DNA of 32,000 nucleotides from Candidatus Bathyarchaeia archaeon (GTDB lineage Archaea; Thermoproteota; Bathyarchaeia; Bathyarchaeales; Bathycorpusculaceae): the NCBI GenBank assembly GCA_049970895.1, contig JBMFMB010000015.1:3207-35206 (forward strand). Reading direction: 5' to 3'. Both the position numbers and the translations under genes were made by a program. Positions within the stretch are counted from its first letter, which is position 1. The number at the start of each line of letters is the position of its first letter. The notes under the pieces were generated by a model. It was not told where the DNA came from. It worked only from the letters and a program-made list of their open reading frames with translations, and did no database searches. This document shows positions 12,358 through 32,000 of this stretch, in pieces.

Positions 12358-15300
12358 CTAAGCTTTCCTAATTTCCAAAATTTCCCTGTACAGCTCTTTG
12401 AGGATTTCCTTATAGTCCACTTTTCCTTGCTCTATCATATTCATTATTGACTCGAGTTTTCGTGTTGCCTCCTCGGAGGTGTACTTCCCAAATCTTAAAC
12501 TTAGGTGCTTGTAGACTTTGAAGCCCAATTTTGTGCTGATGAGCCTATTCCCCTTTTCAATGGCATAGTGCCTCTCCAATATTGTTGCAACAGTTTTAGC
12601 GTAGGTGCTGGGTCTTCCAACGCCTCTATCTTTCATTAGGGCTATTATCTCTCCTTGAGTGAAGGGTCTAGTCGCTGGCAAGTACAGAAGCCTCGCAAAC
12701 CTTAACTTGTATTCGCCCTCCTCAACGATGCTTGCAGTTTTTATTGGCAGTATGGCGTTAAATCCTTCGCTTAAAATGCTGACTGGGTTCTCGACAGACG
12801 CTTGGTTTCCATTTATTAGAACCTTAAATTGTTGATAGAGGATTTTAGCCTCCCTCATCTGGCTTGCAATGAAACGCTTAAATATTAAATCGTAAAGCTG
12901 GAAATGATCATTTGTAAGTCTTTTCGGAAACCTCAAAATTCCCGTGGAAATCAAGTTTTTCAACTGTTCCACGTCTAAAGCCCTCGTTGGTCTGATGCAC
13001 TCATGCGCTCCTTCCATGAAGTATCTCCGCGGGACAAACAGCGACGGATACCTTTCTTGAATGTAGTTTTTGGCAATTCCTATTCCAGTGGCGGAAACTG
13101 TTGTTGAGTCTGTTCTGTGGTATGTGCATAACCCCATTTCAAACAAGTCTTGGGCGATCATCATAGTTTTTGTGGCTGAAAAACCAAGCTTAGCCGAAGC
13201 ATCACGGAGCAGCGTGTCAGTGGTATATGGCGGTGGTGGATTCACACCTTTTTCTTCGGTTTTTAAGTCCACTATTTTCGCTTTTAGCTCGCTAATATGT
13301 TTTTCAATTTGCTGTTCTGGGAATTGGATGACTGGATTTTCAATTGAAACCCTTAAGCCGTTTGAAAGCACTACTGACAAAACTTTCTTCTTCTTTCTTG
13401 ATTCGCTAACCCTCTCTATTATCCATCCAAGCACTGGAGTTTGAACCCTTCCAGCAGAAAGTCTATAGTTCTGGAATCTGTGCCAAAGTTTCTGGCTTAG
13501 CTCAAAGCCTATCCAACGGTCTTCTATGCGTCTGACCAGTTGGGCTTCAACCATCCTCAAATTGATTTCTCGCCTATTCTTTATCGCTTGCAGAAAAGCC
13601 TTCTTTGTGATTTCGTGAAACTCCAGCCTTTCAACTTTATGGTTCATGGGGTAAAGCGAACAGTAAACGTCGTAGGCTATTTTCTCCCCCTCAATATCTG
13701 GGTCTGTGGCTATGAAGATGCTGTTAACTTCTAGGGCGATTTCCCTCATGGCTCCAACAAGCTCGCTTTTGGAGTAGAACTCTTGACTTTTGCATTTTGG
13801 ACAGAACTCTAAACCTGTGAATTGCTCCCCGCATTTTTTGCACTTCTTTATGAAATCGTATATGGGCACAAAATTTCCATCTTCAACTTTTACGCCGTGA
13901 AATCCCTCATTAACCACCAAGTCGTAAATGTGTCCCATGCTTGCCACAATGTTAAGCACAAATTCCCCGGTGCTAACCTCAAAAACTGTTACGTTTCCAA
14001 TTTTCCTCTTATAGGGCTTTCCAAAAAACCTCGATATGGTTCTTGCCTTTGTTGGTGACTCCACAATCAATAGAGCCGCCTTAATGAAGTCCTTTACTCT
14101 CTTGACGATTTTGCCCTCCCTAATCTCCCGTATAATCGCTCTGTCATCGTCTATTTTCCTGAACCATTTCTCAGCAGCTTTGGCGGTGAACCTCGTCCAC
14201 GTGGCTTCTCCAAGCATGAACTCCAGTTTACGCCTAAGCGAGTGGAAAGCCTTCTCATCATCCACAAGGAGAAAGCTTGCACCGTGTGTTATGCCTCCAG
14301 CAAACATTCTTGAGGCCCTTCCAGAAGCTTGAACATAAGCTATGGGATCAGCCGCAATGAGGTAAAAGTCTCCATTCCTCTTCTTTAGGGAAACCTCCTT
14401 ACTCTGCGTTATATGCTCTATAACTTTGGGCGTTATGGCACTTTTTAGAAAATCTCTAGCCTCCAAAACAAGCCTTTTAACATAATCTTCATAACCGCTG
14501 AGTGGGGCGCCGGTCTCTATGGATGTTTTAACCTTTTCCAGCGTCTGCTTGTCTATGGGGACTATTCTGCGAAGACTGCTGATTATCTGGCTTGCCTTGT
14601 CTTGCTGGTCTTTCTCCAGAAACTCCCTAATGTTTTTAAGAAGCGTGAGGATTTTGGAAGGGTTGTATTCTTCCCAGCTCAGCCTAATCTCCATCCTTGG
14701 CACGCCTGTGAAGATTACGTAGCGAACCCTTTCTGGGAGGTCTATCCCCCTAGCAAGGGGGCTTCTGAAGCTTGCAACCCCTATCAAGGCGTCATATTCG
14801 CCCTTCTCAAACTTTCCCAGAAGCCCCTCATCCATTTTCACGTAGACGTTCGCCCTCACACCATTTGCGTTCAAAAAATCGCTTAGCTTAATGGCGTAGT
14901 CTCTGCCAAAAACTGATGGGACAAAAACTAGGCATCCGGAGCCAAAACTCTTGATTAAGGATAGCACTTGGCTATCGATTTCACCATTGTTTGCCTCAAT
15001 GTAAAAGTCTTTGATGTTTCTTAGAAATTCTGGTTTAAAGCCTATCTGAAACCTCAAAAGTTCCTCGAAGAGTTTTATCCTCTTCGTCCTCTTTGCCTTC
15101 ACGGTTGCTCCTGAAACAATCAGCAAGCCGATGTTGTTTCGGCTTTTATAATCCTCAATCTTACGCCTTATCGCCTCCATCTGTTCTAGAACTTCTAACG
15201 AAGATTTACCCATCCTCTTTAATCGGTTCGCCTCTTTTCGGAGGTCTATAAGCTGAAAAGCCAGTGTTATTGTGGCATTGTCAAAGCCCAAAATCGCCAA

Positions 15301-15969
15301 AATCCTATCAATGTTCCTCGGAGATTTTAGGAAGGAGTCAACATCGTCCACAAACACGAAGTCAAAACTTTTGCCTTTTAGGGCGTCAAAGTGGCTCATC
15401 AAAAACCTTTCGGTTGTCACGAGAATTTCAAAATCGCCATTAGCCACCCTTTCCAAGGCCGTTTTTCGTTCTTCATCGCTTAAGGCTACGTGATAACATA
15501 TTTTTCTAGGCTTTATTCCAAGCCTTTCCGAATAGGCATCTAATTTTTCTGAAACCTGCTGAACAAGGAGGGCTGTGGGCACTATTATGTAGCTTTTCTT
15601 CCCACAAACAGCAAAATAGAGGGCCGCAACAGTTCCCAAAACAGTTTTCCCAACACCAGTCGGCGCAACTATAGAAAAGTTCCGTTTTAAGAGGATTCTC
15701 CTAGCCCAAGTCTCCTGAAGGGACCACATCCTCTGCCCAACAGCCCTCTTAAAAAACATAGAAAATTGGCTGAACTTCCTATAAAAATCGAAAACTTCGC
15801 CGGCAAAGTACAGTCTTCCTCTTTCCTCAAGGGCTTTTAACGCTTGTTTCCACGACTTCACATCTTCAACGCTTTCAAGACAATTTTCACACATCCCAAA
15901 TTGTAGGAGACGCTCATCAGAAATTGCGCCCTTACAGTTCACGCATAACCCGTAATAAATCCCCCTCAA
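12358..15969 (-). CDS. rgy: reverse gyrase
   Basis: 1203 aa. N-terminal zinc finger CVNCKG...CENC, helicase Walker A APTGVGKT and VFVDDVD, TOPRIM LLIVESPTKARTI, internal zinc ribbon CKKCG...CPKC, and topo IA catalytic Tyr context CTYHRTDS. Confidence 0.97.
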   Translation of the reverse strand: MRGIYYGLCVNCKGAISDERLLQFGMCENCLESVEDVKSWKQALKALEERGRLYFAGEVFDFYRKFSQFSMFFKRAVGQRMWSLQETWARRILLKRNFSIVAPTGVGKTVLGTVAALYFAVCGKKSYIIVPTALLVQQVSEKLDAYSERLGIKPRKICYHVALSDEERKTALERVANGDFEILVTTERFLMSHFDALKGKSFDFVFVDDVDSFLKSPRNIDRILAILGFDNATITLAFQLIDLRKEANRLKRMGKSSLEVLEQMEAIRRKIEDYKSRNNIGLLIVSGATVKAKRTKRIKLFEELLRFQIGFKPEFLRNIKDFYIEANNGEIDSQVLSLIKSFGSGCLVFVPSVFGRDYAIKLSDFLNANGVRANVYVKMDEGLLGKFEKGEYDALIGVASFRSPLARGIDLPERVRYVIFTGVPRMEIRLSWEEYNPSKILTLLKNIREFLEKDQQDKASQIISSLRRIVPIDKQTLEKVKTSIETGAPLSGYEDYVKRLVLEARDFLKSAITPKVIEHITQSKEVSLKKRNGDFYLIAADPIAYVQASGRASRMFAGGITHGASFLLVDDEKAFHSLRRKLEFMLGEATWTRFTAKAAEKWFRKIDDDRAIIREIREGKIVKRVKDFIKAALLIVESPTKARTISRFFGKPYKRKIGNVTVFEVSTGEFVLNIVASMGHIYDLVVNEGFHGVKVEDGNFVPIYDFIKKCKKCGEQFTGLEFCPKCKSQEFYSKSELVGAMREIALEVNSIFIATDPDIEGEKIAYDVYCSLYPMNHKVERLEFHEITKKAFLQAIKNRREINLRMVEAQLVRRIEDRWIGFELSQKLWHRFQNYRLSAGRVQTPVLGWIIERVSESRKKKKVLSVVLSNGLRVSIENPVIQFPEQQIEKHISELKAKIVDLKTEEKGVNPPPPYTTDTLLRDASAKLGFSATKTMMIAQDLFEMGLCTYHRTDSTTVSATGIGIAKNYIQERYPSLFVPRRYFMEGAHECIRPTRALDVEQLKNLISTGILRFPKRLTNDHFQLYDLIFKRFIASQMREAKILYQQFKVLINGNQASVENPVSILSEGFNAILPIKTASIVEEGEYKLRFARLLYLPATRPFTQGEIIALMKDRGVGRPSTYAKTVATILERHYAIEKGNRLISTKLGFKVYKHLSLRFGKYTSEEATRKLESIMNMIEQGKVDYKEILKELYREILEIRKA

Positions 15970-23334: not shown

Positions 23335-23688
23335 TTAGACTGGTTTTTCCCAGTCTGTTTGGCAGCCGTTTTCAGGGATTAAAATCACTGTTGCCCCGTC
23401 AGGCAGTTGCATTGCGGGATTTTCTCTAACATTTATGGGTTTAGAATCGACGTTAGCGTGTATCGCCACTTGTTTATAGAATCTCTTCTCATGTGGGTGA
23501 TAAACCATCTGGAGCAAGCTTTCATAATCCTTAACGGGGAAAGCGCCCGCCCTACTTCTTATTTCCTCATCCACAGCTTTGATGACGTCCATTACGGAGG
23601 CTTCGTCTTTTAGGGTTAGTTGAAACGCTTGAGGGAAAAGCTTGTTTATTTCCCGTTGGCGGATAATTACCGTGACTCTTTTCATCAA
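23335..23688 (-). CDS. hypothetical protein, possibly beta-grasp (MoaD/ThiS-like) fold
   Basis: 117 aa, starting 17 nt after the ABC-2 permease stop. VTVIIRQ...LTLKDEASVMDVIKAV...LPDGATVILIPENGC follows a beta-grasp-like pattern but lacks a terminal GG. Confidence 0.45.
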   Translation of the reverse strand: MMKRVTVIIRQREINKLFPQAFQLTLKDEASVMDVIKAVDEEIRSRAGAFPVKDYESLLQMVYHPHEKRFYKQVAIHANVDSKPINVRENPAMQLPDGATVILIPENGCQTDWEKPV

Positions 23689-23705
23689 TGTTTCTATGTT
23701 TTTAA

Positions 23706-24458
23706 TTAACTTAACCGTTTCGCAAGGGTTTCCTCATGCAGTTTTATAGCTGCAAATGCAAATGCCACAGCGAAGGCTATAACAGCCATAAAGTCTAGCG
23801 CCAGCGGATAAAAGCCCCTGCCTAGGAACAGCTGCCTAACCATGTCTGTGAAGTATGTTAATGGCGAAATGGAGGCTATGATTGTTCCCCATGGCGGCAG
23901 CTGGTCTACTGGTATGAAGACTCCGCTTATAAACACAAGTGGGAACTTAACCAAGGATGAGAGCATCATTGATGTGGCTGGTATGTCTGTTGGCGGGTAA
24001 GCCGAAAGCAAAACACTTAGGGCTGCAAAGCAAAGGTTTGCAACGATTAAGCCGAAAAGCAGCACTACGAAGTTTAATGGCTCAATTGCCAGCACTAGCG
24101 TCAATGCTAAGGGAATAATTGATATTATGAGCCCGAAAAGGAAGGAGGAAAGCATATCTCCAACAATAATAGTCCATAAGGCGACTGGGCAGCACAAAAG
24201 CCGTTCAAGGGTTTTTGAGCGGGTTTCCCAAGGCACAATGGAAGGTCCAACAGAAGTTGCTGTGAAAAAGGTTGTCATGCCAATTAATCCGGGCAAGACC
24301 TCTCTTAAGGGTATGTTTCGCCCTATAATGTAGGCTAAAGCCAAAAACAGTGGAAAAACTAGACCGAAAATTAAGACGGGCCCCTTTGAATAGTAGATTT
24401 TAATGTTCTTTTCTGCTATGACAAAGGAACGCTTAAACTGTTCTGTTAAGCGGCTCAT
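23706..24458 (-). CDS. ABC-2-type exporter permease
   Basis: 250 aa with about 6 TM helices. Its start overlaps the ATPase stop by 4 nt (ATGA). Confidence 0.85.
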   Translation of the reverse strand: MSRLTEQFKRSFVIAEKNIKIYYSKGPVLIFGLVFPLFLALAYIIGRNIPLREVLPGLIGMTTFFTATSVGPSIVPWETRSKTLERLLCCPVALWTIIVGDMLSSFLFGLIISIIPLALTLVLAIEPLNFVVLLFGLIVANLCFAALSVLLSAYPPTDIPATSMMLSSLVKFPLVFISGVFIPVDQLPPWGTIIASISPLTYFTDMVRQLFLGRGFYPLALDFMAVIAFAVAFAFAAIKLHEETLAKRLS

Positions 24459-25393
24459 TGTTTTGCTGCCTCCTTTCCCTTTATGAGTTTGAGGAAAACG
24501 TCTTCAAGCGAGGGCATCATGGTGTTTAGGCTTAAAATTTTTAGGTGTTTCCTTTTGGCAAATTCCACTAGAAACTCAATCACCTCTGATGGTTGAGCCG
24601 TGTAAATGCGCATTTTATTCCCTGCAGTCACGGCCCTTGTAATGTTTGGGTTTTCCAAGAGCCCTTGCTGGTTTACTGGTTTGCTGAATGCAACTTCAAT
24701 GTATTGGAGTTCCATGCTTTCCGCTCTGAGGTTTTCTGGAGTGTCTATGGCTGCTATTCTTCCATGGTTTATTATGGCTATTCTATGGCAGAGCTGGTTG
24801 GCTTCATCCATGTTATGAGTTGAAAGAAAAACGGTTTTCCCATCCCTATTATACTCGTTTATTTTCTCCCTAAGAAGCCTTGCACTTTCCACGTCCAGCC
24901 CGGAGGTTGGCTCGTCTAAGAATAGCACTTCTGGGTCGTTAACCAGAGCCATGCATAATAGAAGCCTCTGCTTCATCCCCTTTGAGAAGGCTCTGACAAG
25001 CTTGTCCCTAACCTCATATAGCCCAAATTCTTTCAGAAGCCTTGTAGCGTTTTCCCGAAGCCTCTGCGTTGGGACACCGTAAAGCCTCCCTATTAGGACT
25101 AGGTTATCCCATGCTGAAAGGTCTACGTAGGCGTTGGAAACTTCTGGGACAACACCAATACGCTGCTTCGCCTCTACAGGGTTCTTTAAGACGTCAAATC
25201 CGGCTACGAAGGCTTCTCCTTCATCCGGCCTTAAAAGCCCTGTTAAGATTCTAATGGTTGTTGTTTTCCCAGCGCCGTTTGGTCCGAGAAATCCGAAAAT
25301 TTCGCCCCTTTTAACTTTGAAGCTTACGTGGTCAACAGCGGTGACATCCTCGAAATGTTTCGTTAAATCCTTAACAGCTATTGCGTTTTCCAT
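24455..25393 (-). CDS. ABC transporter ATP-binding protein (DrrA/CcmA-like)
   Basis: Walker A GPNGAGKTT, signature FSKGMKQRL, Walker B VLFLDEPTSGLD. The start is taken at MENAIAV, which has GAGGTGG upstream; the ORF extends to 25435. Confidence 0.9.
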   Translation of the reverse strand: MENAIAVKDLTKHFEDVTAVDHVSFKVKRGEIFGFLGPNGAGKTTTIRILTGLLRPDEGEAFVAGFDVLKNPVEAKQRIGVVPEVSNAYVDLSAWDNLVLIGRLYGVPTQRLRENATRLLKEFGLYEVRDKLVRAFSKGMKQRLLLCMALVNDPEVLFLDEPTSGLDVESARLLREKINEYNRDGKTVFLSTHNMDEANQLCHRIAIINHGRIAAIDTPENLRAESMELQYIEVAFSKPVNQQGLLENPNITRAVTAGNKMRIYTAQPSEVIEFLVEFAKRKHLKILSLNTMMPSLEDVFLKLIKGKEAAKQ

Positions 25394-25406
25394 GTCTACG
25401 CCACCT

Positions 25407-25742
25407 CTAGTGGGGTTCTTGTATGCCAAGCACAACCATGCGTTCTTTGCTTCTTATACCTCTAGCCACGTTTGCTGGGACAAAGACCATTTGAACACTG
25501 GATAAGTCGGCTTTTTCCTTGCCAACAGTGAAAGTTCCAGAGCCTTCAACAACATAGAAGCACACGTCGTAGGGTTCGGGTCTGGATGGAATTTCCTGCC
25601 CAAAGTCAAGGGAGAGAAGCATAAGGTTGAAATTTCTCGTCTTTAACAAGTCTTTTTTGACGCGTCGACGCTTCTCCATAGAATCCAATAAGCCTTTATC
25701 CTGCGAATACCCTACAAGCTTTCTCAAATCTATTACATCCAT
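25407..25742 (-). CDS. cupin-domain protein
   Basis: FYVVEGSGTFTVGKE...VFVPANVARGI matches the two-motif cupin_2 pattern. It is the first gene of the ABC unit. Confidence 0.7.
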   Translation of the reverse strand: MDVIDLRKLVGYSQDKGLLDSMEKRRRVKKDLLKTRNFNLMLLSLDFGQEIPSRPEPYDVCFYVVEGSGTFTVGKEKADLSSVQMVFVPANVARGIRSKERMVVLGIQEPH

Positions 25743-25798
25743 TTCTCTTCCATCTTATTTTGTGATTTCGAAATTGGAAAGGGGGGATTTTGGTGGTA

Positions 25799-25996
25799 TT
25801 AGCGTTTTAGGGCTTCTAGACGCTTGTTGATTTTCTCAATTCTTTTTGTTAGGGCTTCCTTGTATTCTTCCAGCATTTTTATTTCCTCTTCAACGTCCAT
25901 TATTGGCCATGGTAAGCCCATATAGTGCTTATGTTCGTGTTCATGCTCGTGGTGGTGATGGTGCCTTTCCATTCCACAACAGCAGCATCTACACAT
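25799..25996 (-). CDS. Cys5/His9-rich micro-protein with C-terminal coiled coil (DUF5320-like tail)
   Basis: MCRCCCCGMERHHHHHEHEHEHKHY... is followed by VEEEIKMLEEYKEALTKRIEKINKRLEALKR. GGAGGTG lies 8 nt upstream of this ATG, and the ATG overlaps the PadR stop by 8 nt. The ORF track extends it to 26038. Confidence 0.6.
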   Translation of the reverse strand: MCRCCCCGMERHHHHHEHEHEHKHYMGLPWPIMDVEEEIKMLEEYKEALTKRIEKINKRLEALKR

Positions 25997-26393
25997 CTGG
26001 CTTTTCACCTCCCTTCCCACTTTTTTCAAAATTTTCATAATAAAATTTCACAAGATCTTCAAACAGCCTCTTCCGCTTGACTATGGATGCCAGCCCCATT
26101 TTTAGGGCTTCAACGCCTTTGCCAGTAAGCCTATAGACGCGCCTGTCTGGGCCCCCTTCAACCTTCTCCCATTGCGACTCCAGTAGGCCACGTTCTTCCA
26201 TCCGTCTTAGGAGCGTGTATATGGAACCTGGCTCTAGCCTGTGGCATCCGCAGCTTCGCTCCTCAATTTCTTCTAGGAGTTGGTAGCCGTGCATTGGCTT
26301 TTCATAAAGTACTCGCATTATTAGGAATTGTATCCATCCCCGTTCTGGGTATTCGTGCCAGCATCCGCAGTGATGCCTACTTGGTCCGCACAT
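25989..26393 (-). CDS. PadR-family transcriptional regulator with Cys/His-rich N-terminus
   Basis: Winged HTH MHGYQLLEEIEE...GSIYTLLRRMEERGLLESQWE...RRVYRLTGKG. Extra MCGPSRHHCGCWH at the N-terminus and a CGCH insert. Confidence 0.85.
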   Translation of the reverse strand: MCGPSRHHCGCWHEYPERGWIQFLIMRVLYEKPMHGYQLLEEIEERSCGCHRLEPGSIYTLLRRMEERGLLESQWEKVEGGPDRRVYRLTGKGVEALKMGLASIVKRKRLFEDLVKFYYENFEKSGKGGEKPDV

Positions 26394-26642: not shown

Positions 26643-27038
26643 GTGCAAGCCTTAAATGGAAAAACGAAACTATTGGATGAGGAAGCCATGCAGTCAAAGG
26701 AACGTTCAGGTGAAGGCGTTGTCAAAATTAGGAGTTGGGCTGAGTTTAAGCGTCTAGCCGAAAGCCTAAAGCCAAAAGCCGTAGTCTACAACATAGAACA
26801 GAACGGCCTATCGCCAGAAAGAGAATTGACAAATTTGAGGCTTATACTGCCAGCTGGATCAGCCTACTATGTTTTGATAGATTCTCCGAGAGGCGAGGAA
26901 AGGCTTAAGGAGACTGGCATACCACTGCGGAAAGACGAGAAAGGAAACCGTTACTTGGAGGAGGAAGACGTCATAAAATTCTTGAAGGAGCAGTTTAAAC
27001 GCGAAGACCTAATCATATGCTCATACTGGACCATTTAA
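26643..27038 (+). CDS. hypothetical protein
   Basis: 131-aa ORF with a GTG start; an alternative ATG at 26688 has GAGGA upstream. I recognise no motif. Confidence 0.5.
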   Translation: MQALNGKTKLLDEEAMQSKERSGEGVVKIRSWAEFKRLAESLKPKAVVYNIEQNGLSPERELTNLRLILPAGSAYYVLIDSPRGEERLKETGIPLRKDEKGNRYLEEEDVIKFLKEQFKREDLIICSYWTI

Positions 27039-27073
27039 TACATTAGGCTATGTCAGATTTAACGCATTTTTCT

Positions 27074-27094
27074 TTCAGAAAGGATTTCTGAAAC
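27074..27094 (+). promoter_or_regulatory. perfect 9-bp hairpin (tttcagaaa-gga-tttctgaaa): operator or terminator
   Basis: It lies 36 nt after the stop of 26643..27038, and its right arm overlaps the conserved promoter box. It is absent from promoter copy 1. Confidence 0.35.
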
Positions 27095-27118
27095 AATAAA
27101 TTTAAATCTTTGAATATA
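27091..27118 (+). promoter_or_regulatory. BRE/TATA-like promoter box, copy 2
   Basis: Same 19-mer as copy 1, ~40 nt upstream of ATG 27147. The shared acgcattt is at 27063-27070. Confidence 0.55.
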
Positions 27119-27146
27119 TGCAAATATCACCTAAAGGTGAAAGAAT

Positions 27147-27527
27147 ATGAGTGAAAGGAAATTGCCAAGATTTATAATGTGTTTCTGTACTGGTGAGTGC
27201 CCTGGATTCGCAAAGTTGGATTTGTGGAAGTTGATAAACTTTGTTAGGAACGAGCTTGACGTGGAGTACGCCATAATTCATCCACAACTATGCGTCACAG
27301 ATGGAGACAACTTTTTCAGGGATTACTTGAAGGAAACGGATAAGGATAAGATATACATTATAGGCGGTTGCGACCCTAGGATGCAAAGGAAAATGTTCAA
27401 GGATGCCTTTGCTGAGAAAGGTTTGGACTTTGATAAGCAAGTAATTTCTTTGGATTTGAGGAATATGGAAACTGCAGAGGCTATGAAGAAGGTTGAGGAA
27501 GCTGTAAGTAAGGTGGTTGGCGCATAA
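27147..27527 (+). CDS. stand-alone HdrA-N-terminal-domain-like Cys protein
   Basis: FIMCFCTGEC...HPQLCVTDG...IIGGCDPRMQRKMF...LDLRNMETAEAMKK lines up with my recollection of the HdrA N-terminus (VCHCGVNIGG...YYCSDPG...AACSPRLHEPTF...NIREQ...ATEKAK). The four aligned Cys are conserved. Confidence 0.6.
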   Translation: MSERKLPRFIMCFCTGECPGFAKLDLWKLINFVRNELDVEYAIIHPQLCVTDGDNFFRDYLKETDKDKIYIIGGCDPRMQRKMFKDAFAEKGLDFDKQVISLDLRNMETAEAMKKVEEAVSKVVGA

Positions 27528-27528
27528 T

Positions 27529-27891
27529 ATGGGCGAGGAAAAGAAGGAGAAGTACCTCGCTGAGGAGCGGTACTACGGACCTAAGGTTATGGCTCCACAG
27601 AACCCCTTCGGACTGCCTAGAAAGGAGATTAAATGGTACCCGACAATTGACTATAGCAAATGCGACCCAAAAGTATGCGACTACTTCTGCGTTGACTATT
27701 GCCACATGAGAGTTTACAAACGTGTAGGAGACAAAGTTTTTGTCGACGACCCATACAACTGTAATGTGCCGAGCCAGTCATGCGCCCCAAGATGCCCAAC
27801 GGGAGCCATAAGCTTCCCATCGCAAGAGGAGTTAAAACGCCAACTTAGGGAGTTAAGAAAGAAGTATGGATACGTCACAACCAATCCGTAG
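27529..27891 (+). CDS. ferredoxin-like protein, degenerate Cys spacing (paralogue of 27911..28204)
   Basis: GLPRKEIKWYPTIDYSKCDPKVCDYFCVDYC...CNVPSQSCAPRCPTGAISFPSQEELKRQLRELRKKYGY. I prefer ATG 27529, with AAGGTGG upstream; the ORF track starts at TTG 27517. Confidence 0.7.
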   Translation: MGEEKKEKYLAEERYYGPKVMAPQNPFGLPRKEIKWYPTIDYSKCDPKVCDYFCVDYCHMRVYKRVGDKVFVDDPYNCNVPSQSCAPRCPTGAISFPSQEELKRQLRELRKKYGYVTTNP

Positions 27892-27910
27892 CAAGCAAAA
27901 ACACTAGAAG

Positions 27911-28204
27911 ATGAGAGTCGTGGGCGAGGAGAAGACGTATTTAGGAATACCAAGAAAGGAGATTAAATGGTATCCATCAATTAATCATGAACTTTGCACT
28001 GGCTGCGGAATTTGTGTGGAATTCTGCCACGAACACGTTTACGAAAAGCAAGGTGACAAGGCAGTTGTTGCTAGACCTTACGATTGCCTGGTGGGCTGTG
28101 AATCATGCAGACCGCGATGCCCAGTGGGAGCTATAAGTTTCCCTTCAAGGCAGGAACTTAAACAGATGCTTAGAGAACTACGGGAGAAATACGGATACGG
28201 TTAA
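27911..28204 (+). CDS. 2x[4Fe-4S] ferredoxin-domain protein
   Basis: CTGCGICVEFC (CxxCxxCxxxC) plus CLVGCESCRPRCP, and the same C-terminal helix, SRQELKQMLRELREKYGYG, as its upstream paralogue. Confidence 0.8.
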   Translation: MRVVGEEKTYLGIPRKEIKWYPSINHELCTGCGICVEFCHEHVYEKQGDKAVVARPYDCLVGCESCRPRCPVGAISFPSRQELKQMLRELREKYGYG

Positions 28205-28593
28205 GGCTTGGCAAAATCCCACTTAAGCATACTTTCTATCATTTTTGGATTTTTAATGCTGTAGTATACCCATCTGCCCTCTTTTCTGCCCTTCACCAGT
28301 CCAGCGTTTTCCAGTATTTTCAAATGATGAGAGGCTGTTGGCTGTGTTAGGTCAAGGGCTATCATAATTTCGCAGACACACATTTCCCGTACGCCTAAAA
28401 GCTTCAAAATCCTAAGCCTCGTCGTATCAGCCAACGCCTTAAAAAGTTTACATCGCTCCTCAGCCTCATTAACCCTTGCCACATCATCAGCGAGCTGCCT
28501 CAATTCCGCCGCATACTTTTGTGGATCTTCATGAGGGCAAAGTCCGGAACTTATCAGCCGCATAAGCCTCTTATCTATTTTAGACTCAAACAT
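28201..28593 (-). CDS. ArsR/SmtB-family metalloregulator with N-terminal extension
   Basis: LFKALADTTRLRILKLLGVREMCVCEIMIALDLTQPTASHHLKILENAGLV, including a CVC alpha-3 site. The start is taken at MFESK, with a TATA-like box at 28626-28635; the ORF extends to 28638. Confidence 0.85.
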   Translation of the reverse strand: MFESKIDKRLMRLISSGLCPHEDPQKYAAELRQLADDVARVNEAEERCKLFKALADTTRLRILKLLGVREMCVCEIMIALDLTQPTASHHLKILENAGLVKGRKEGRWVYYSIKNPKMIESMLKWDFAKP

Positions 28594-28648
28594 TTTGGTT
28601 TCCCCTAGTAATAGTGAGATTAAAATATTTAAATACATTTTGAAGCTG

Positions 28649-29230
28649 CTACTTCAGTTTAATAGGATTCATCATCCTTTCTATTTGAAACTTATAATTG
28701 CTGTACTCCTTAGAATCTAGTGGAGGGCAATCCCCCAATGTTTTTTCGCCATTTAGGAGTTTGGCCGCAAAAGTGAAACAGCTTTGTTCACCGCACATTT
28801 TGCAGTTCGTTTTCGGCAGAAGCTCGTAAATCTTTGTTGCCGTTAGCTCTTTCTTTGCTTGAACAGCTTCGGGATTTGGTTTTCCATGGGTTTTAAGGTA
28901 TATTATGGCGCGGTTTATAAGGCGCCTAGCCTCTTCCACGAGCTGGTTTGCCTCGTTCCGGTCTTTAACATAGGTCATGGTGATTCTGCCGTTAGCAAAA
29001 ATTGTTATCAAATGCTGTTGGTACATGTAGCTTAGTGCGCCAAGCTTTTCAGAGTATTTGGCGTTTGGAATAGCCAAATAAAGGATTGGCAAAACATCCC
29101 CCAAGGGCTTGTCAGCTTGAGCCCAAAACTTTATCCTTTCAGGATCAGCCGTACAAGGCGAAATCTCCTTAATCTCAACCTTTTTAACAATGGCATCTGC
29201 AAATAAAAGTTCCTCAAATTCACTACTCAT
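28649..29230 (-). CDS. protein with CFeSP/RnfB-type N-terminal [4Fe-4S] domain (PF04060-like) after an unknown ~125-aa domain
   Basis: KIYELLPKTNCKMCGEQSCFTFAAKLLNGEKTLGDCPPL resembles the AcsC/CdhE N-terminus (LPKxNCGECGxPTCxAFAxKLAxGK...CP). Confidence 0.65.
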   Translation of the reverse strand: MSSEFEELLFADAIVKKVEIKEISPCTADPERIKFWAQADKPLGDVLPILYLAIPNAKYSEKLGALSYMYQQHLITIFANGRITMTYVKDRNEANQLVEEARRLINRAIIYLKTHGKPNPEAVQAKKELTATKIYELLPKTNCKMCGEQSCFTFAAKLLNGEKTLGDCPPLDSKEYSNYKFQIERMMNPIKLK

Positions 29231-29234
29231 CCAT

Positions 29235-29786
29235 TTACGCTCCCAGCTCCAGCTTTATTGGCTGTATCATTTTCTCTAATTGTTCTCTGTTAACCGTGTA
29301 TTTTGGTTGTTGGATTTGGGTGCATTCCTGTAGAGTTTTCTCTCCGTTTGCGAGTTTTACGGCGAAGGGGAAACATCCCTGTTCTCCGCATTCCTTGCAG
29401 TTTATTTTAGGCAGAAGCCTGTATATCTCAATGGGGTTGAGCTTTTGTTTAGCCTCTAAAAGCTTTGGGTCTGGAGAACCATGCCTCTCATAATACTCAT
29501 AAGCCTTGTCCAGTACAACCTTCAACTTTTCTAAGAGTCTTAGAGCTATTTCCTCCCTCAAAACACAGCCTAACTTAATCTTTCCATCAGAGTAAACTGT
29601 TACAAGCTTACCGTCTATTAGGAATGTGACGGAGCCGAAGGCTTTAGCATACTGCGAATGAGGTATAGCCAGAAAAAGTATGGGAACAATCTCGCTTAGA
29701 GGCTTGTCTGCTTGGGCTGTTATCTGGAGCTTTCTAGGCTCTAATAGGCAAGGGGTCTTTTCCGTAATGCTGATTTCATAAGCCAT
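29235..29786 (-). CDS. paralogue of 28649..29230 (PF04060-like [4Fe-4S] domain protein)
   Basis: EIYRLLPKINCKECGEQGCFPFAVKLANGEKTLQECTQI. The N-terminal domain is also alignable to its neighbour (ADKPL..I.PILFLAIP, HG.P.P). The gap to the next gene is 4 nt. Confidence 0.65.
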   Translation of the reverse strand: MAYEISITEKTPCLLEPRKLQITAQADKPLSEIVPILFLAIPHSQYAKAFGSVTFLIDGKLVTVYSDGKIKLGCVLREEIALRLLEKLKVVLDKAYEYYERHGSPDPKLLEAKQKLNPIEIYRLLPKINCKECGEQGCFPFAVKLANGEKTLQECTQIQQPKYTVNREQLEKMIQPIKLELGA

Positions 29787-29799
29787 AATCTCAAATCAC

Positions 29800-30192
29800 T
29801 TACAGTTTCGCTTCTTTGATGACAACTTCTGCTATTTTCTTAACATCCGCCTCATAAATGTCAAGGGTTGGCACCTTCTGCAAATACTTTGAAATGTCAA
29901 TTTCATAATCTATCCTTTTCCCAGCCTTCTCCAAGACTTTTGACGCGCATCTGTTACCGCACCCGTTTATAACAATGTTTTTCATGGCTTTCTCTGCTAT
30001 TTCTAAGTGGGGTTTTGAGTTAGCCGCCACAGCTGTTGTGCAGCACATCCTCGCCTTATCAAGATTTGTCAGCAAAACGCCTACGGCGTGTCCTATTTGG
30101 CCGACGTTGGCTGCTCCGTCGCAAACCCAGACCACATTTTCATGTTCGGCAACTTTATAGCATAATGGAAGAATTTTTGGCTGAACTGTCAT
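29800..30192 (-). CDS. DGC-domain (putative zinc-binding) protein, variant motif NGC
   Basis: VCDGAANVGQIGH...CCTTAV...VINGCGNRCASKVLEKAG. Paralogue of the gene immediately upstream. Confidence 0.65.
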   Translation of the reverse strand: MTVQPKILPLCYKVAEHENVVWVCDGAANVGQIGHAVGVLLTNLDKARMCCTTAVAANSKPHLEIAEKAMKNIVINGCGNRCASKVLEKAGKRIDYEIDISKYLQKVPTLDIYEADVKKIAEVVIKEAKL

Positions 30193-30194
30193 GC

Positions 30195-30638
30195 TTATTT
30201 CTCCATAATCGCCTTTATAATCAGTTCTTTAGCCTTCTTTATGTCTTCTTGGGAAATGTATTTTTCAACGCCTAAGCCCTTTCCAATGTCCGTGTGCAAC
30301 GCTATCTTCTTCATGCCTATGTCCCTGGCAAGGACTATGCTTTTTGATATCTTGAAGCCAGCAGCCTCTATGGTTTTTCTGGCACATTCAAAGGGGCAAC
30401 CATCCACAGTTATTATCTTCTTTGCAGCCTTAGCTTTGCCCAAGACGGGCTTAACACCAAGAGGCACCGAAGGCAAGCAGCCAATAGCCACTTTCTCCAA
30501 GCCCAACTCCCTGACAACTTCCAAACATGCCAATGCGCTTGTTAATCCGGTGTTAGATAAGCCGCCAAAACAAGAGAACAATATGTTCTCATGGGTCGGC
30601 ATGCCTTCCTGCCATTCTCCCTCCCTAGACATTAACAT
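30195..30638 (-). CDS. DGC-domain (putative zinc-binding) protein
   Basis: FSCFGGLSNTGLTSALAC...IGC...ITVDGCPFECARKTIEAAG shows the named DGC motif and the conserved Cys set. Confidence 0.72.
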   Translation of the reverse strand: MLMSREGEWQEGMPTHENILFSCFGGLSNTGLTSALACLEVVRELGLEKVAIGCLPSVPLGVKPVLGKAKAAKKIITVDGCPFECARKTIEAAGFKISKSIVLARDIGMKKIALHTDIGKGLGVEKYISQEDIKKAKELIIKAIMEK

Positions 30639-30648
30639 TCAGCACCTC

Positions 30649-30909
30649 CTACTGCACACCTGCCTCCCTTAAGGCTTCTTTGAAGGTTTCCTCGCTTGGG
30701 CAGACGCCTATGATGCGGATGTCCTTGTCGATTACGACGGCGGGGCTTGCGTTTATGCCATATTCGCTTAGCTTCTGGTTCACTCCACGATAAATTTCAA
30801 TTTCAATTTTGTCCTTATACTCCTCTCTTATCTTCTCTATCAATTTTAGCAGCAGTCTTCCACCCGAGCATGGCGGCTCCGAAGTGAAAACTTCAACTTT
30901 TACTGGCAT
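30649..30909 (-). CDS. Thioredoxin_3 / MTH895-type small thioredoxin-fold protein, CxxG variant
   Basis: MPVKVEVFTSEPPCSGG...YGINASPAVVIDKDIRIIGVCPSEE. The second active-site Cys is replaced by Gly. Its start overlaps the upstream paralogue by 17 nt. Confidence 0.75.
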   Translation of the reverse strand: MPVKVEVFTSEPPCSGGRLLLKLIEKIREEYKDKIEIEIYRGVNQKLSEYGINASPAVVIDKDIRIIGVCPSEETFKEALREAGVQ

Positions 30910-31171
30910 GTTTAAACCTCATTTCTTTAAGCGCTGCTTCAATGGTTTGCATGCTTGGGCAGACGCCCATAATCTTTATTTTGCCTTCGTTGAAGACTAT
31001 GGCTGGAACCACTGTTATGCCATACTTTCCAAACTCTTCGCATGGTCCAACATGCTTAATCACTTCCACCCTGTCGCCATACTTCGCCTTAATCAGGTCC
31101 GCGTACTCCAAGAGTTTTAGGCAACCGGCACACGGCGGCTCAGCCGTAAAAGTTTCAACCTTCACAACCAT
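30893..31171 (-). CDS. Thioredoxin_3 / MTH895-type small thioredoxin-fold protein (CAGC)
   Basis: MVVKVETFTAEPPCAGC...YGITVVPAIVFNEGKIKIMGVCPS. Confidence 0.8.
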   Translation of the reverse strand: MVVKVETFTAEPPCAGCLKLLEYADLIKAKYGDRVEVIKHVGPCEEFGKYGITVVPAIVFNEGKIKIMGVCPSMQTIEAALKEMRFKHASKS

Positions 31172-31182
31172 TTAGCAACACC

Positions 31183-31506
31183 TTAAACTATTTGCTCAAC
31201 AACATGCTTTACAAGTGCATCCACGAAATTGACATCAACAGCATCAATCACCTTGAAAACGGCTGGATTAGTCACAGAGTAAAAGCGCCTGTTCCCTTCC
31301 CTTCTGTCTCTGACAAGCCCACATCTTTTAAGAATGGCAAGATGCCTAGAGACCAGCGGTTGGGTTATCCCCACATAGGGGACGATTTCGCAGACGCATC
31401 TTTCGCCACCACGTAAAAATTCGAGAATTTTAAGCCTCACCGGGTCGGCTAGCGCATTAAAGACTTTAGCCCTAAACTTTTCCATGTTTTTCATTTTTGG
31501 ATGCAC
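31183..31506 (-). CDS. ArsR/SmtB-family metalloregulator
   Basis: VFNALADPVRLKILEFLRGGERCVCEIVPYVGITQPLVSRHLAILKRCGLV, including a CVC site. GTG start at 31506 or ATG at 31494. Confidence 0.85.
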   Translation of the reverse strand: MHPKMKNMEKFRAKVFNALADPVRLKILEFLRGGERCVCEIVPYVGITQPLVSRHLAILKRCGLVRDRREGNRRFYSVTNPAVFKVIDAVDVNFVDALVKHVVEQIV

Positions 31507-31526
31507 GTTTAAAGCAAAGTCTATAA

Positions 31527-31542
31527 CAATATTTAAATATTG
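31527..31542. promoter_or_regulatory. perfect 16-bp palindrome centred on a TATA-like TTTAAA in the divergent arsR / trx-like intergenic region
   Basis: caatatttaaatattg. It lies ~21 nt from the arsR GTG and ~36 nt from the trx-like ATG. Confidence 0.5.
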
Positions 31543-31577
31543 CTATACTCCTTCACATTCTCCAGGGTGAAAACCAC

Positions 31578-31850
31578 ATGAAAGAAGTAAAAGTCGAGGT
31601 TATTGGGACCGAACCGCCTTGCATGCGTTGCCAAGCGACAAGAAAAGCCGTGGAAAAAGCTGCTGTGAAGCTTAAGCAAGCTGGTGTCATGGTGAACATT
31701 GAAAAGGCGAACATAATGTCGAAGGAGGTTGTCCAAAAATACGGCGTTTTGGTTTCGCCAGCCGTAGCCATAAACAACACGGTCAAAATCATGGGGCGGG
31801 TTCCAAGCCCAGAGGAAGTTGAAAAGCTGATTATGGAAGAAGCCAAATAG
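31578..31850 (+). CDS. Thioredoxin_3 / MTH895-type small thioredoxin-fold protein (CMRC)
   Basis: VKVEVIGTEPPCMRCQATRKAVE...YGVLVSPAVAINNTVKIMGRVPSPEEVEKLI. Confidence 0.8.
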   Translation: MKEVKVEVIGTEPPCMRCQATRKAVEKAAVKLKQAGVMVNIEKANIMSKEVVQKYGVLVSPAVAINNTVKIMGRVPSPEEVEKLIMEEAK

Positions 31851-31865: not shown

Positions 31866-32000
31866 ATGGAGGAAAAAACTAAGGGGGCTATCAGAGCTGG
31901 CGTAATCCTAGCCTTCGTAGCTGTTGTAATAGGGCTTTTAATCTACAGCCGCATAGTGGCTTATTCAATGGCGCCGCAATCAAAACCCATTGATTTACGC
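31866..32000 (+). CDS. membrane-anchored protein, 5' partial (runs off the window)
   Basis: ATG 16 nt after the Trx-like stop. MEEKTKGAIRAGVILAFVAVVIGLLIYSRIV forms one TM helix followed by a hydrophilic stretch. Identity is undeterminable from 45 codons. Confidence 0.4.
   Translation, partial: MEEKTKGAIRAGVILAFVAVVIGLLIYSRIVAYSMAPQSKPIDLR

Follow-up and report, generated by a model that had tools for sequence, protein, structure and literature searches.

Gene content of the locus

Close to the right-hand end of a 32,000-nt stretch of DNA from Candidatus Bathyarchaeia archaeon (hereafter the window, meaning that whole stretch: assembly GCA_049970895.1, contig JBMFMB010000015.1, positions 3,207 to 35,206 of the forward strand) lies a divergent gene cluster bracketed by two ArsR-type repressors. 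Eight close-set genes run along the minus strand and encode an ArsR, two thioredoxin-like (Trx-like) proteins, two DGC-domain proteins, two Fe-S proteins with a PF04060 domain and a second ArsR; a third Trx-like gene departs in the opposite direction (Table 1). Genes and domains were called from a listing of open reading frames (ORFs), a Pfam scan against gathering thresholds, and NCBIfam models with curated cutoffs. All nine proteins of the cluster exceeded the Pfam gathering thresholds, and the two regulators scored 99 (ArsR1) and 106 bits (ArsR2) against NF033788 (cutoff 55). An earlier note on this DNA, made from the letters and their translations, had proposed these domains for confirmation by profile hidden Markov models (HMMs), and the Pfam scan upheld them; its gene order and coordinates matched the ORF listing. 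The motifs it had singled out (CVC in both ArsRs, CAGC and CSGG in the minus-strand Trx-like proteins, DGC and NGC in the DGC pair, CxxCxxCxxxC versus Cx4Cx3Cx3C in the neighboring ferredoxins) could all be seen in the translations, as could CMRC in the third Trx-like protein, TrxC.

Along the minus-strand octet the intergenic gaps are 11, −17, 10, 2, 13, 4, and 10 nt. The close packing described in the earlier note is real, but its single 17-nt overlap, between TrxA and TrxB, comes down to a 1-nt difference in a run of G: on the near-identical contig L004 (L-numbers label the related contigs and loci compared with the window), TrxA ends 2 nt before TrxB. The 3′ end of TrxA thus varies through a 1-nt indel. 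The start of ArsR2 is most likely Met16 (ATG at 28593), because its orthologues begin there and because the resulting 55-nt gap holds a conserved TATA-like box. The arsR1 transcript probably has a short leader or none. Exact matches of the locus are found in a Bathyarchaeia metagenome-assembled genome (MAG), GCA_023269895.1, and in several metagenomes.

Table 1. Genes and sequence elements of the ArsR-bracketed locus and its neighbors, in window coordinates.
Feature	Position	Strand	Description
ArsR1	31183..31506	-	ArsR/SmtB repressor, CVC in helix alpha3; leading gene of the leftward operon; HTH_5 67 bits
TrxA	30893..31171	-	Small thioredoxin fold, CAGC, extra Cys in GPCEEF and GVCPS; Thioredoxin_3 33 bits
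TrxB	30649..30909	-	Monothiol partner of TrxA, CSGG and GVCPS; Thioredoxin_3 32 bits
DGC1	30195..30638	-	Cys4 DGC-domain protein of an extremely conserved subfamily; PF08859 64 bits (cutoff 27)
DGC2	29800..30192	-	NGC-variant DGC paralogue, four invariant Cys kept; PF08859 79 bits (cutoff 27)
FeS1	29235..29786	-	TBP-like domain, helical linker and CFeSP-type [4Fe-4S] domain; PF04060 47 bits (cutoff 23)
FeS2	28649..29230	-	FeS1 paralogue, same architecture; PF04060 50 bits (cutoff 23)
ArsR2	28201..28638	-	ArsR/SmtB, CVC and N-terminal arm with GLCP (alpha3N-like); HTH_5 66 bits
TrxC	31578..31850	+	Thioredoxin-like, CMRC, MTH895/ArsE-type resemblance; heads the rightward efflux operon; Thioredoxin_3 53 bits
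ArsP_1 permease, opening 45 codons of 344 aa	31866..32000	+	PF03773, TVCSCTMVP motif
Palindrome, 26 bp, TATAACAATATTTAAATATTGCTATA	31522..31547	strandless	Likely ArsR operator and promoter common to both divergent units
Internal TATA-like box/operator, GTATTTAAATATTTTAAT on the coding strand	28619..28636	strandless	Upstream of the probable arsR2 start
p131, p126 (HdrA N-domain or MvhD resemblance), Fd124, Fd97	26643..28204	+	Convergent co-conserved neighbors
PadR, 57-aa ORF, Cupin_2, ABC ATPase, ABC-2 permease, 117-aa ORF	23335..26393	-	Accessory set

A shared palindrome and a permease at the edge of the window

The two units diverge from a 26-bp palindrome whose inverted repeat is 94% complementary and whose center forms a bidirectional TATA-like box. 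Its 12-mer core, TATTTAAATATT, occurs at just two sites in the window, this palindrome and positions 28624-28635, and it is conserved in relatives, which bears out the two operator boxes proposed in the earlier note. The palindrome is kept between the divergent genes of L010, L012, L015, L016, L019, L020, and L022 and takes variant forms in L013 and L017, and the internal box upstream of ArsR2 is kept in L010, L019, L020, and L022. Both elements are conserved in related Bathyarchaeia whichever the divergent partner, the TrxC-ArsP operon or the p126-ferredoxin operon. The CVC motif of helix alpha3 is likewise retained in every ArsR orthologue compared, at the position of the cysteine site in R773 ArsR. 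From this pattern of conservation the TATA-centered palindrome is likely the ArsR operator, and it offers a ready archaeal repressor-operator system for testing.

On the other side of the palindrome, the best NCBIfam match of TrxC is TIGR00412, named 'MTH895/ArsE family' (50.3 bits, below its cutoff of 62; TrxA and TrxB reach 27 and 26 bits). The gene that follows was cut short, since the window stops 135 nt into it. Extending the contig (L001) past base 32000 identified the membrane protein that the earlier note had wished to see named: it is a 344-aa ArsP_1 permease (PF03773, 151 bits, cutoff 32.3) with a TVCSCTMVP (CSC) motif, and the next gene encodes a ferredoxin-like protein of 118 aa that carries a zinc ribbon. 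In the relatives compared, ArsP_1 always comes directly after TrxC. The remark in the earlier note that no resistance gene can be seen is therefore true of the window itself, yet it is an artefact of a boundary that falls inside the ArsP_1 gene.

Related clusters carry arsenic resistance genes

Relatives of the locus were gathered by scanning one genome per GTDB species, which gave 75 loci onto which the families of the window were mapped by phmmer and HMMs. We then clustered all genes lying no more than 3.5 kb from an Fe-S gene in 57 species-level loci. The commonest neighbors were ferredoxin-like (17), ArsR (16), Trx_3 (16), ArsP_1 (14), SBF (10), and DGC (8) genes. As the families of the cluster are also the most recurrent neighbors of the Fe-S family, the association is more than chance. 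The same gene families recur around the homologues in more than 30 species, both archaeal and bacterial.

Two of the neighboring families point to arsenic, as does the name that NCBIfam gives TIGR00412. Six of the seven SBF neighbors tested, and one more in L094, proved to be true ACR3 transporters (330-474 bits against a cutoff of 282.8; L020, L022, L031, L053, L054, L069, and L094), and for the LMWPc neighbors (L017, L019, L047, L087, and L094) the best matches are arsenate reductases, with scores below the curated cutoffs. A third line comes from Pseudodesulfovibrio mercurii ND132, where an ArsR5-ArsP-ArsE(PF13192)-DGC(PF08859) operon was found by RNA-seq to be up-regulated by As(III) and As(V) (bioRxiv 10.1101/2022.10.17.512643). 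This 'operon C' shares with our locus the ArsR regulator, the PF03773 permease, the PF13192 thioredoxin-like protein and the PF08859 DGC protein, the last labelled 'unknown function' in that study. It differs in that its genes, one per family, all run in one direction in a single bacterial operon, and in having neither TBP-like Fe-S proteins, nor a TrxA/TrxB pair, nor a second ArsR. Hence the view that no characterised system has this composition holds for the set of eight genes but was overstated for the ArsR/ArsP/Trx_3/DGC core.

A family of TBP-like/[4Fe-4S] proteins linked to ArsR

FeS1 and FeS2 are each predicted to be one domain like the TATA-binding protein (TBP) joined to a [4Fe-4S] domain of the type found in the corrinoid iron-sulfur protein (CFeSP). 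The AlphaFold2 (AF2) model of FeS1 (pLDDT 92) shows an N-terminal alpha/beta domain (~residues 1-105), a long helix and a small C-terminal cluster domain. Foldseek aligned the first with archaeal TBPs (1ais_A, 2z8u, and 1mp9) at a probability of 1.0 and a root-mean-square deviation of 2.0-3.3 Å over 74-85 columns, and the last with the N-terminal domain of CFeSP at 40% identity. The family profile searched against the PDB recovered the same two relatives (CFeSP, 3e-12; TBP, 0.0036), and Pfam TBP gave weak matches, below the gathering score, to FeS2 (E=0.0036) and to another member, P0193 (8.6e-4). The Cx2Cx4Cx16C cluster motif is complete in both proteins, with C130, C133, C138, and C155 conserved.

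The C-terminal 45-60 residues thus resemble the N-terminal [4Fe-4S] domain of the CFeSP large subunit (AcsC/CdhE; 2ycl, 4c1n, and 4djd; E about 1e-12) and have the same cysteine spacing, but the TIM-barrel and corrinoid-binding parts are missing and a TBP-like domain is attached instead. The N-terminal ~100 residues correspond to one TBP-like half-domain. Single-domain TBP-like proteins are known in archaea, and the fusion of a TBP-like with an Fe-S domain is absent from the published account of the TBP superfamily (Brindefalk et al. 2013, PMC3597702). The family also departs from TBP in its below-threshold sequence similarity and in having bacterial members. A search with the N-terminal domain across 1.84 billion representative proteins returned 122 clusters only, with most members about 180 aa long. 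A scan of viral contigs for relatives of FeS1 found none, and a literature search on COG4871, PF04060, and DUF318 gave nothing relevant.

Some members are longer. Their N-terminal extensions were considered as second TBP domains, an option we ruled out: they are either an ArsR-like winged helix-turn-helix (wHTH; best Pfam matches HTH_20 and HTH_5, E 6e-4 to 8e-3), a Se/S-carrier domain, or, in a further subset, an unknown domain of 200 aa. One gene of the wHTH-TBP-FeS type has ArsR, ArsC-like and true ACR3 (437 bits) genes for neighbors. Separate ArsR genes lie directly beside a TBP-FeS gene in nine loci (the window, L010, L012, L016, L017, L019, L020, L022, and L034), and in L012 and L016 the operon is reduced to ArsR1-FeS1. 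Fusion to the wHTH, adjacency to ArsR in nine loci and these minimal operons together suggest that the Fe-S proteins work with ArsR-type regulators. Judged by such contexts, they look more like regulator-associated modules than like links of a relay.

DGC1 is conserved across domains of life

The two DGC proteins are 30% identical and have C23, C54, C81, and C85 in common, which are invariant throughout the DGC alignment. The D-to-N change that makes the motif of DGC2 NGC is fixed in all its Bathyarchaeia orthologues (L010, L013, L015, L017, and L023). In two of the three minus-strand pairs, the earlier note had described one copy as canonical and the other as degenerate; the CAGC/CSGG and DGC/NGC differences on which this was built are genuine, but DGC2 keeps all four cysteines.

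DGC1 has 651 homologues that are 70-96% identical to it, distributed across archaea and bacteria. Its identity to proteins of Methanocellales and several bacterial phyla (L025 5812-6249, L085 5001-5444, and L092 6001-6441) is 70-88%, and the neighboring ArsP, TrxC, FeS, and ArsR proteins are merely 25-48% identical in the same cross-domain comparison. This pattern of sequence identity indicates unusual constraint, horizontal transfer, or both. The bacterial homologues sit in clusters of ArsR, ArsP_1, Trx_3, PF04060, SBF, LMWPc, DsbD, and Usp genes; DsbD/CcdA-type genes accompany them in L091 and L092, and no CcdA/DsbD gene is present in the window.

The AF2 model of DGC1 (pLDDT 90) has a flavodoxin-like alpha/beta fold. 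Comparing it with the PDB by Foldseek gave no significant match, the best being weak resemblances to flavodoxin-like or low-molecular-weight protein tyrosine phosphatase structures (E>0.01, TM about 0.4), and for this reason we do not claim an ArsC-like fold. The DGC profile had no significant match among PDB sequences either (top hit CutC, E=0.023), and a search of plasmids for DGC1 found just distant haloarchaeal proteins, labelled 'putative zinc-binding proteins' and set outside ars contexts.

A probable arsenic or thiophilic metal(loid) resistance island

Taken together, we consider it on balance probable that the locus represents, in Bathyarchaeia, a variant of an arsenic/thiophilic metal(loid) resistance island widespread in anaerobes, in which its genes would have roles in regulation, efflux, and help to the efflux system. 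The metalloid reading advanced in the earlier note is supported by the ACR3 and ArsC-like genes of homologous clusters and by the induction of the ND132 operon by arsenic. The plan of classical ars operons (arsRBC, arsR-acr3-arsC) and of the ArsP methylarsenite permease can be recognized in the Cys-site ArsR, a predicted efflux permease that the regulator probably controls and the thioredoxin-linked chemistry; unlike them, the locus in the window has no ArsB, Acr3, ArsC, ArsA, or ArsD, and its permease is assigned no more narrowly than to PF03773.

The domain identities, the conservation of operators, the neighborhoods with ACR3 and ArsC-like genes and the domain fusion come from the comparisons above; how the system is induced, what it acts on and what its proteins do biochemically we infer as follows. 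ArsR1 and ArsR2 would sit on the TATA-centered palindrome and on the related box before arsR2, as the anatomy of the locus suggests, and their binding would block access of TBP/TFB to the shared TATA box. As(III) or a related soft species, captured by the CVC cysteines, would free the repressors from DNA; in ArsR2, an N-terminal Cys arm would add to the alpha3 CVC thiolate pair. The rightward unit, made of the ArsE-like TrxC, the CSC-motif ArsP_1 permease and the small ferredoxin, would then export the toxic species, and the leftward unit would supply cytoplasmic Cys-rich proteins (TrxA/TrxB and DGC1/DGC2) and the two TBP-like/[4Fe-4S] proteins. The DGC proteins may bind or process the metalloid, and the TBP-like Fe-S proteins may form with ArsR cluster-based sensor or co-regulator modules, and not links in an electron-transport chain.

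Several observations weigh against this interpretation. Neither the window nor the 20-kb contig L004 contains ACR3, ArsB, ArsC, ArsA, ArsD, or ArsM, and a literature search found no experiment on any DGC or TBP-FeS protein, and in the library searched a single paper mentions PF08859. The curated models nearest to the permease are the efflux families SO_0444 for Cu/Zn (2e-24) and SaoE (1.5e-20), both scoring below cutoff. As for the Fe-S family, the wHTH assignment in the fused proteins falls below the Pfam threshold, about 25 TBP-FeS loci, mostly from Anaerolineae, have none of these neighbors, and a Se/S-carrier domain (PF11823, E=8e-16; P0241) is joined to some members. In Acetoanaerobium noterae, a cultured Firmicute (L095, NZ_CP154629.1, 5711-7495), the homologue lies 25 nt downstream of a class-V aminotransferase of the cysteine desulfurase type, with no ArsR nearby. 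The desulfurase neighbor and the carrier fusion hint that the TBP-FeS family is linked to sulfur or selenium.

Part of this evidence would fit an island that handles another thiophilic species, be it Cu, Zn, Cd or Hg, an organometal, or a reactive form of sulfur or selenium (persulfide, polysulfide, selenide). The permease has the CSC motif in common with its SO_0444 and SaoE relatives, the ArsR and Trx proteins have weak NCBIfam matches to TsoR, BigR, CmtR, TsoX, and SaoT, and TBP-FeS genes are found beside DsrE/DsrH as well as cysteine desulfurase genes. CVC sites are known too in sensors of Cd, Pb, and Zn, such as CadC. Among known systems, the closest of this kind is SAO, which has been proposed to handle a thiophilic metal (Haft & Gwadz) and which also combines, in anaerobes, a CSC-motif PF03773-type permease with a small Cys-rich thioredoxin-like protein. 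Yet the proteins of the window score 74 bits against SaoE (cutoff 325) and 18 against SaoT (cutoff 65), and the MerB-like SaoL, the Sao ABC importer and selenocysteine are all missing from the locus, which has ArsR regulators instead, and ACR3 neighbors in its relatives. Scores against the Cu/Zn, Sao, and Tso models are all far below the curated cutoffs, true ACR3 and ArsC-like genes are present in no fewer than 10 homologous clusters, and the ND132 operon of ArsR, ArsP, ArsE, and DGC responds to arsenic. We thus deem a non-arsenic island unlikely.

The paired genes are old and modular

Every structural family of the minus strand is present twice, in the order AA′BB′CC′, which the earlier note had taken for duplication. 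The paralogues are old, and were not duplicated in place: TrxA and TrxB are 43% identical, FeS1 and FeS2 41%, and ArsR1 and ArsR2 47%, so that the pairs as a whole span 30-47%, and DNA similarity is restricted to short motifs. On these values we rejected a recent tandem duplication. Moreover, each paralogue subfamily is separately conserved in other genomes, and in varied arrangements among the Bathyarchaeia relatives. The closest relative, L010 (93% identity), has ArsR1-DGC1-DGC2-FeS1-FeS2-ArsR2 and is missing TrxA and TrxB; L019 has ArsR1-DGC1-FeS2-ArsR2, and L017 has ArsR2-FeS1-DGC2. In L020, L022, and L024 the order is ArsR1-TrxA-TrxB-Fd-DUF169-FeS2-ArsR2, followed by ACR3 in L020 and L022, which are sister Bathyarchaeia loci. 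The adjacencies that recur are DGC2-FeS1 (six loci, including L010, L013, L015, L017, and L023), DGC1-FeS2 (two loci), and FeS2-ArsR2 (five loci, among them L010, L019, L020, and L022). Because recurrent adjacency runs across families, the order in the window is best read, from these comparisons, as a merger of an ArsR-DGC2-FeS1 module and an ArsR1-DGC1-FeS2-ArsR2 module with a TrxA-TrxB cassette.

This bears on the mechanism put forward in the earlier note, a linear electron or thiol relay of obligate heterodimers that would pass from FeS1/FeS2 through DGC1/DGC2 to TrxA/TrxB, taken here with one copy of each pair catalytic and the other degenerate. TrxA and TrxB do behave as a pair: with their CAGC and CSGG motifs they are translationally coupled and always co-occur (four of four loci: the window, L020, L022, and L024), and each of the three TrxB orthologues keeps CSGG. 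In the window every one of the three families is duplicated, and DGC and FeS also in L010; tandem DGC pairs exist in L027 and L029, two FeS genes in L013, L035, L043, L045, and L062, and in CFeSP and RnfB the PF04060 domain serves in electron transfer. But the conservation of paired order for which the earlier note had suggested looking is found for TrxA/TrxB, and not for the DGC and Fe-S pairs, where L012, L016, L017, L019, L085, and L092 make do with a lone DGC or FeS gene and where the conserved contacts are those between families. L010 dispenses with both TrxA and TrxB. Four cysteines in both DGC proteins and a full cluster motif in both Fe-S proteins leave no asymmetry between a catalytic and a dead copy, and the subfamilies, as divergent as they are, are conserved independently. 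Obligate heterodimerization thus agrees with the record of TrxA/TrxB and disagrees with that of the other two families, and we find the relay as a whole quite improbable.

A further alternative, in which FeS1-FeS2 heterodimers or homodimers form a TBP-like saddle that binds the palindrome in a cluster- or redox-dependent manner and competes with TBP, would accommodate the convergence of structure and sequence on a TBP half-domain, the presence of two paralogues in the window, operators that are extended TATA palindromes and the annotation of the family by JGI as transcriptional regulators, but we regard it as very unlikely, given that bacteria, in which TBP and TATA promoters are absent, have members of the family too, that the separate wHTH of fused members suggests that some other part than the TBP-like domain reads the DNA, that TBP-like folds serve other roles in glycosylases and RNase HIII, and that many loci hold a single copy.

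Returning to the resistance island, its novelty lies in the accessory families, especially the ArsR-linked TBP-like/[4Fe-4S] module and the ultra-conserved DGC1. One tentative possibility, which goes beyond the reading we favor, is that the ~180-aa TBP-like/[4Fe-4S] proteins constitute an unrecognised class of Fe-S co-regulators that would act with an ArsR-family wHTH (in trans here, in cis in the fusions found elsewhere) and gate arsenic-responsive promoters by the state or redox of their cluster, docking perhaps, in the archaeal case, on or beside the TATA-centered palindrome; DGC1 would in addition be a new core arsenic-handling protein. For strict anaerobes and archaea, the understanding of arsenic resistance lags far behind that for aerobic model bacteria, and here three uncharacterised families (DGC, TBP-like/[4Fe-4S], and small ferredoxins) accompany ArsR, ArsP_1, ACR3, and ArsC-like genes in more than 30 related loci from both domains. 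Functions for them would close a recurring gap in the annotation of ars islands, and their assignment could expose a new Fe-S input to ArsR-type regulation and explain the cross-domain conservation of DGC1.

Neighboring genes and host

The operon of p126 and the ferredoxins, convergent with the cluster in the window, shares its intergenic region there with PadR; in L013 and L015-L017 it replaces TrxC-ArsP opposite ArsR and diverges from the ArsR palindrome. A scan of the PadR/p131 intergenic region found no ArsR palindrome, so in the Bathyarchaeon host this operon is probably not under ArsR. On the far side of PadR, the set of ABC_tran, ABC2_membrane, and Cupin_2 genes recurs by ArsR/ArsP_1/Trx_3/DGC clusters in L087 and L092, both bacterial, with E=2e-21 for the homology of the cupins, and the island may extend to this accessory set (23335-26393).

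Independent assemblies (L001-L003, L005-L007, and L009) break at the junction of arsR1 and the palindrome (~31469-31521) and within DGC1, which fits strain-level swapping of modules at the palindrome and the near-identity of DGC1 across organisms. Further away, the window encodes a reverse gyrase of 1203 aa (12358-15969, minus strand) with helicase, Toprim, and topoisomerase IA domains and the reverse-gyrase zinc finger; the host is therefore a thermophile. The related MAGs come from hot-spring samples.

Three more features were noticed in the related loci. DUF169 (PF02596, 203 bits; 7210-7953 in L020/L022), encoded between the ferredoxin and FeS2, recurs in five TBP-FeS neighborhoods and is another uncharacterised family tied to these islands. 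Conserved proteins of 116-118 aa that follow SBF transporters (L085 6968-7324; L087 7334-7684) begin with an N-terminal 'GGLKSCCS' that recalls the vicinal-Cys site of ArsD, and have no match in Pfam or NCBIfam. Finally, in the ars-like island of bacterial locus L087, a fusion of corrinoid-binding MtrA with PF04060 (9803-10441) immediately follows the TBP-FeS gene, which may indicate a connection with corrinoid-dependent methyl transfer.

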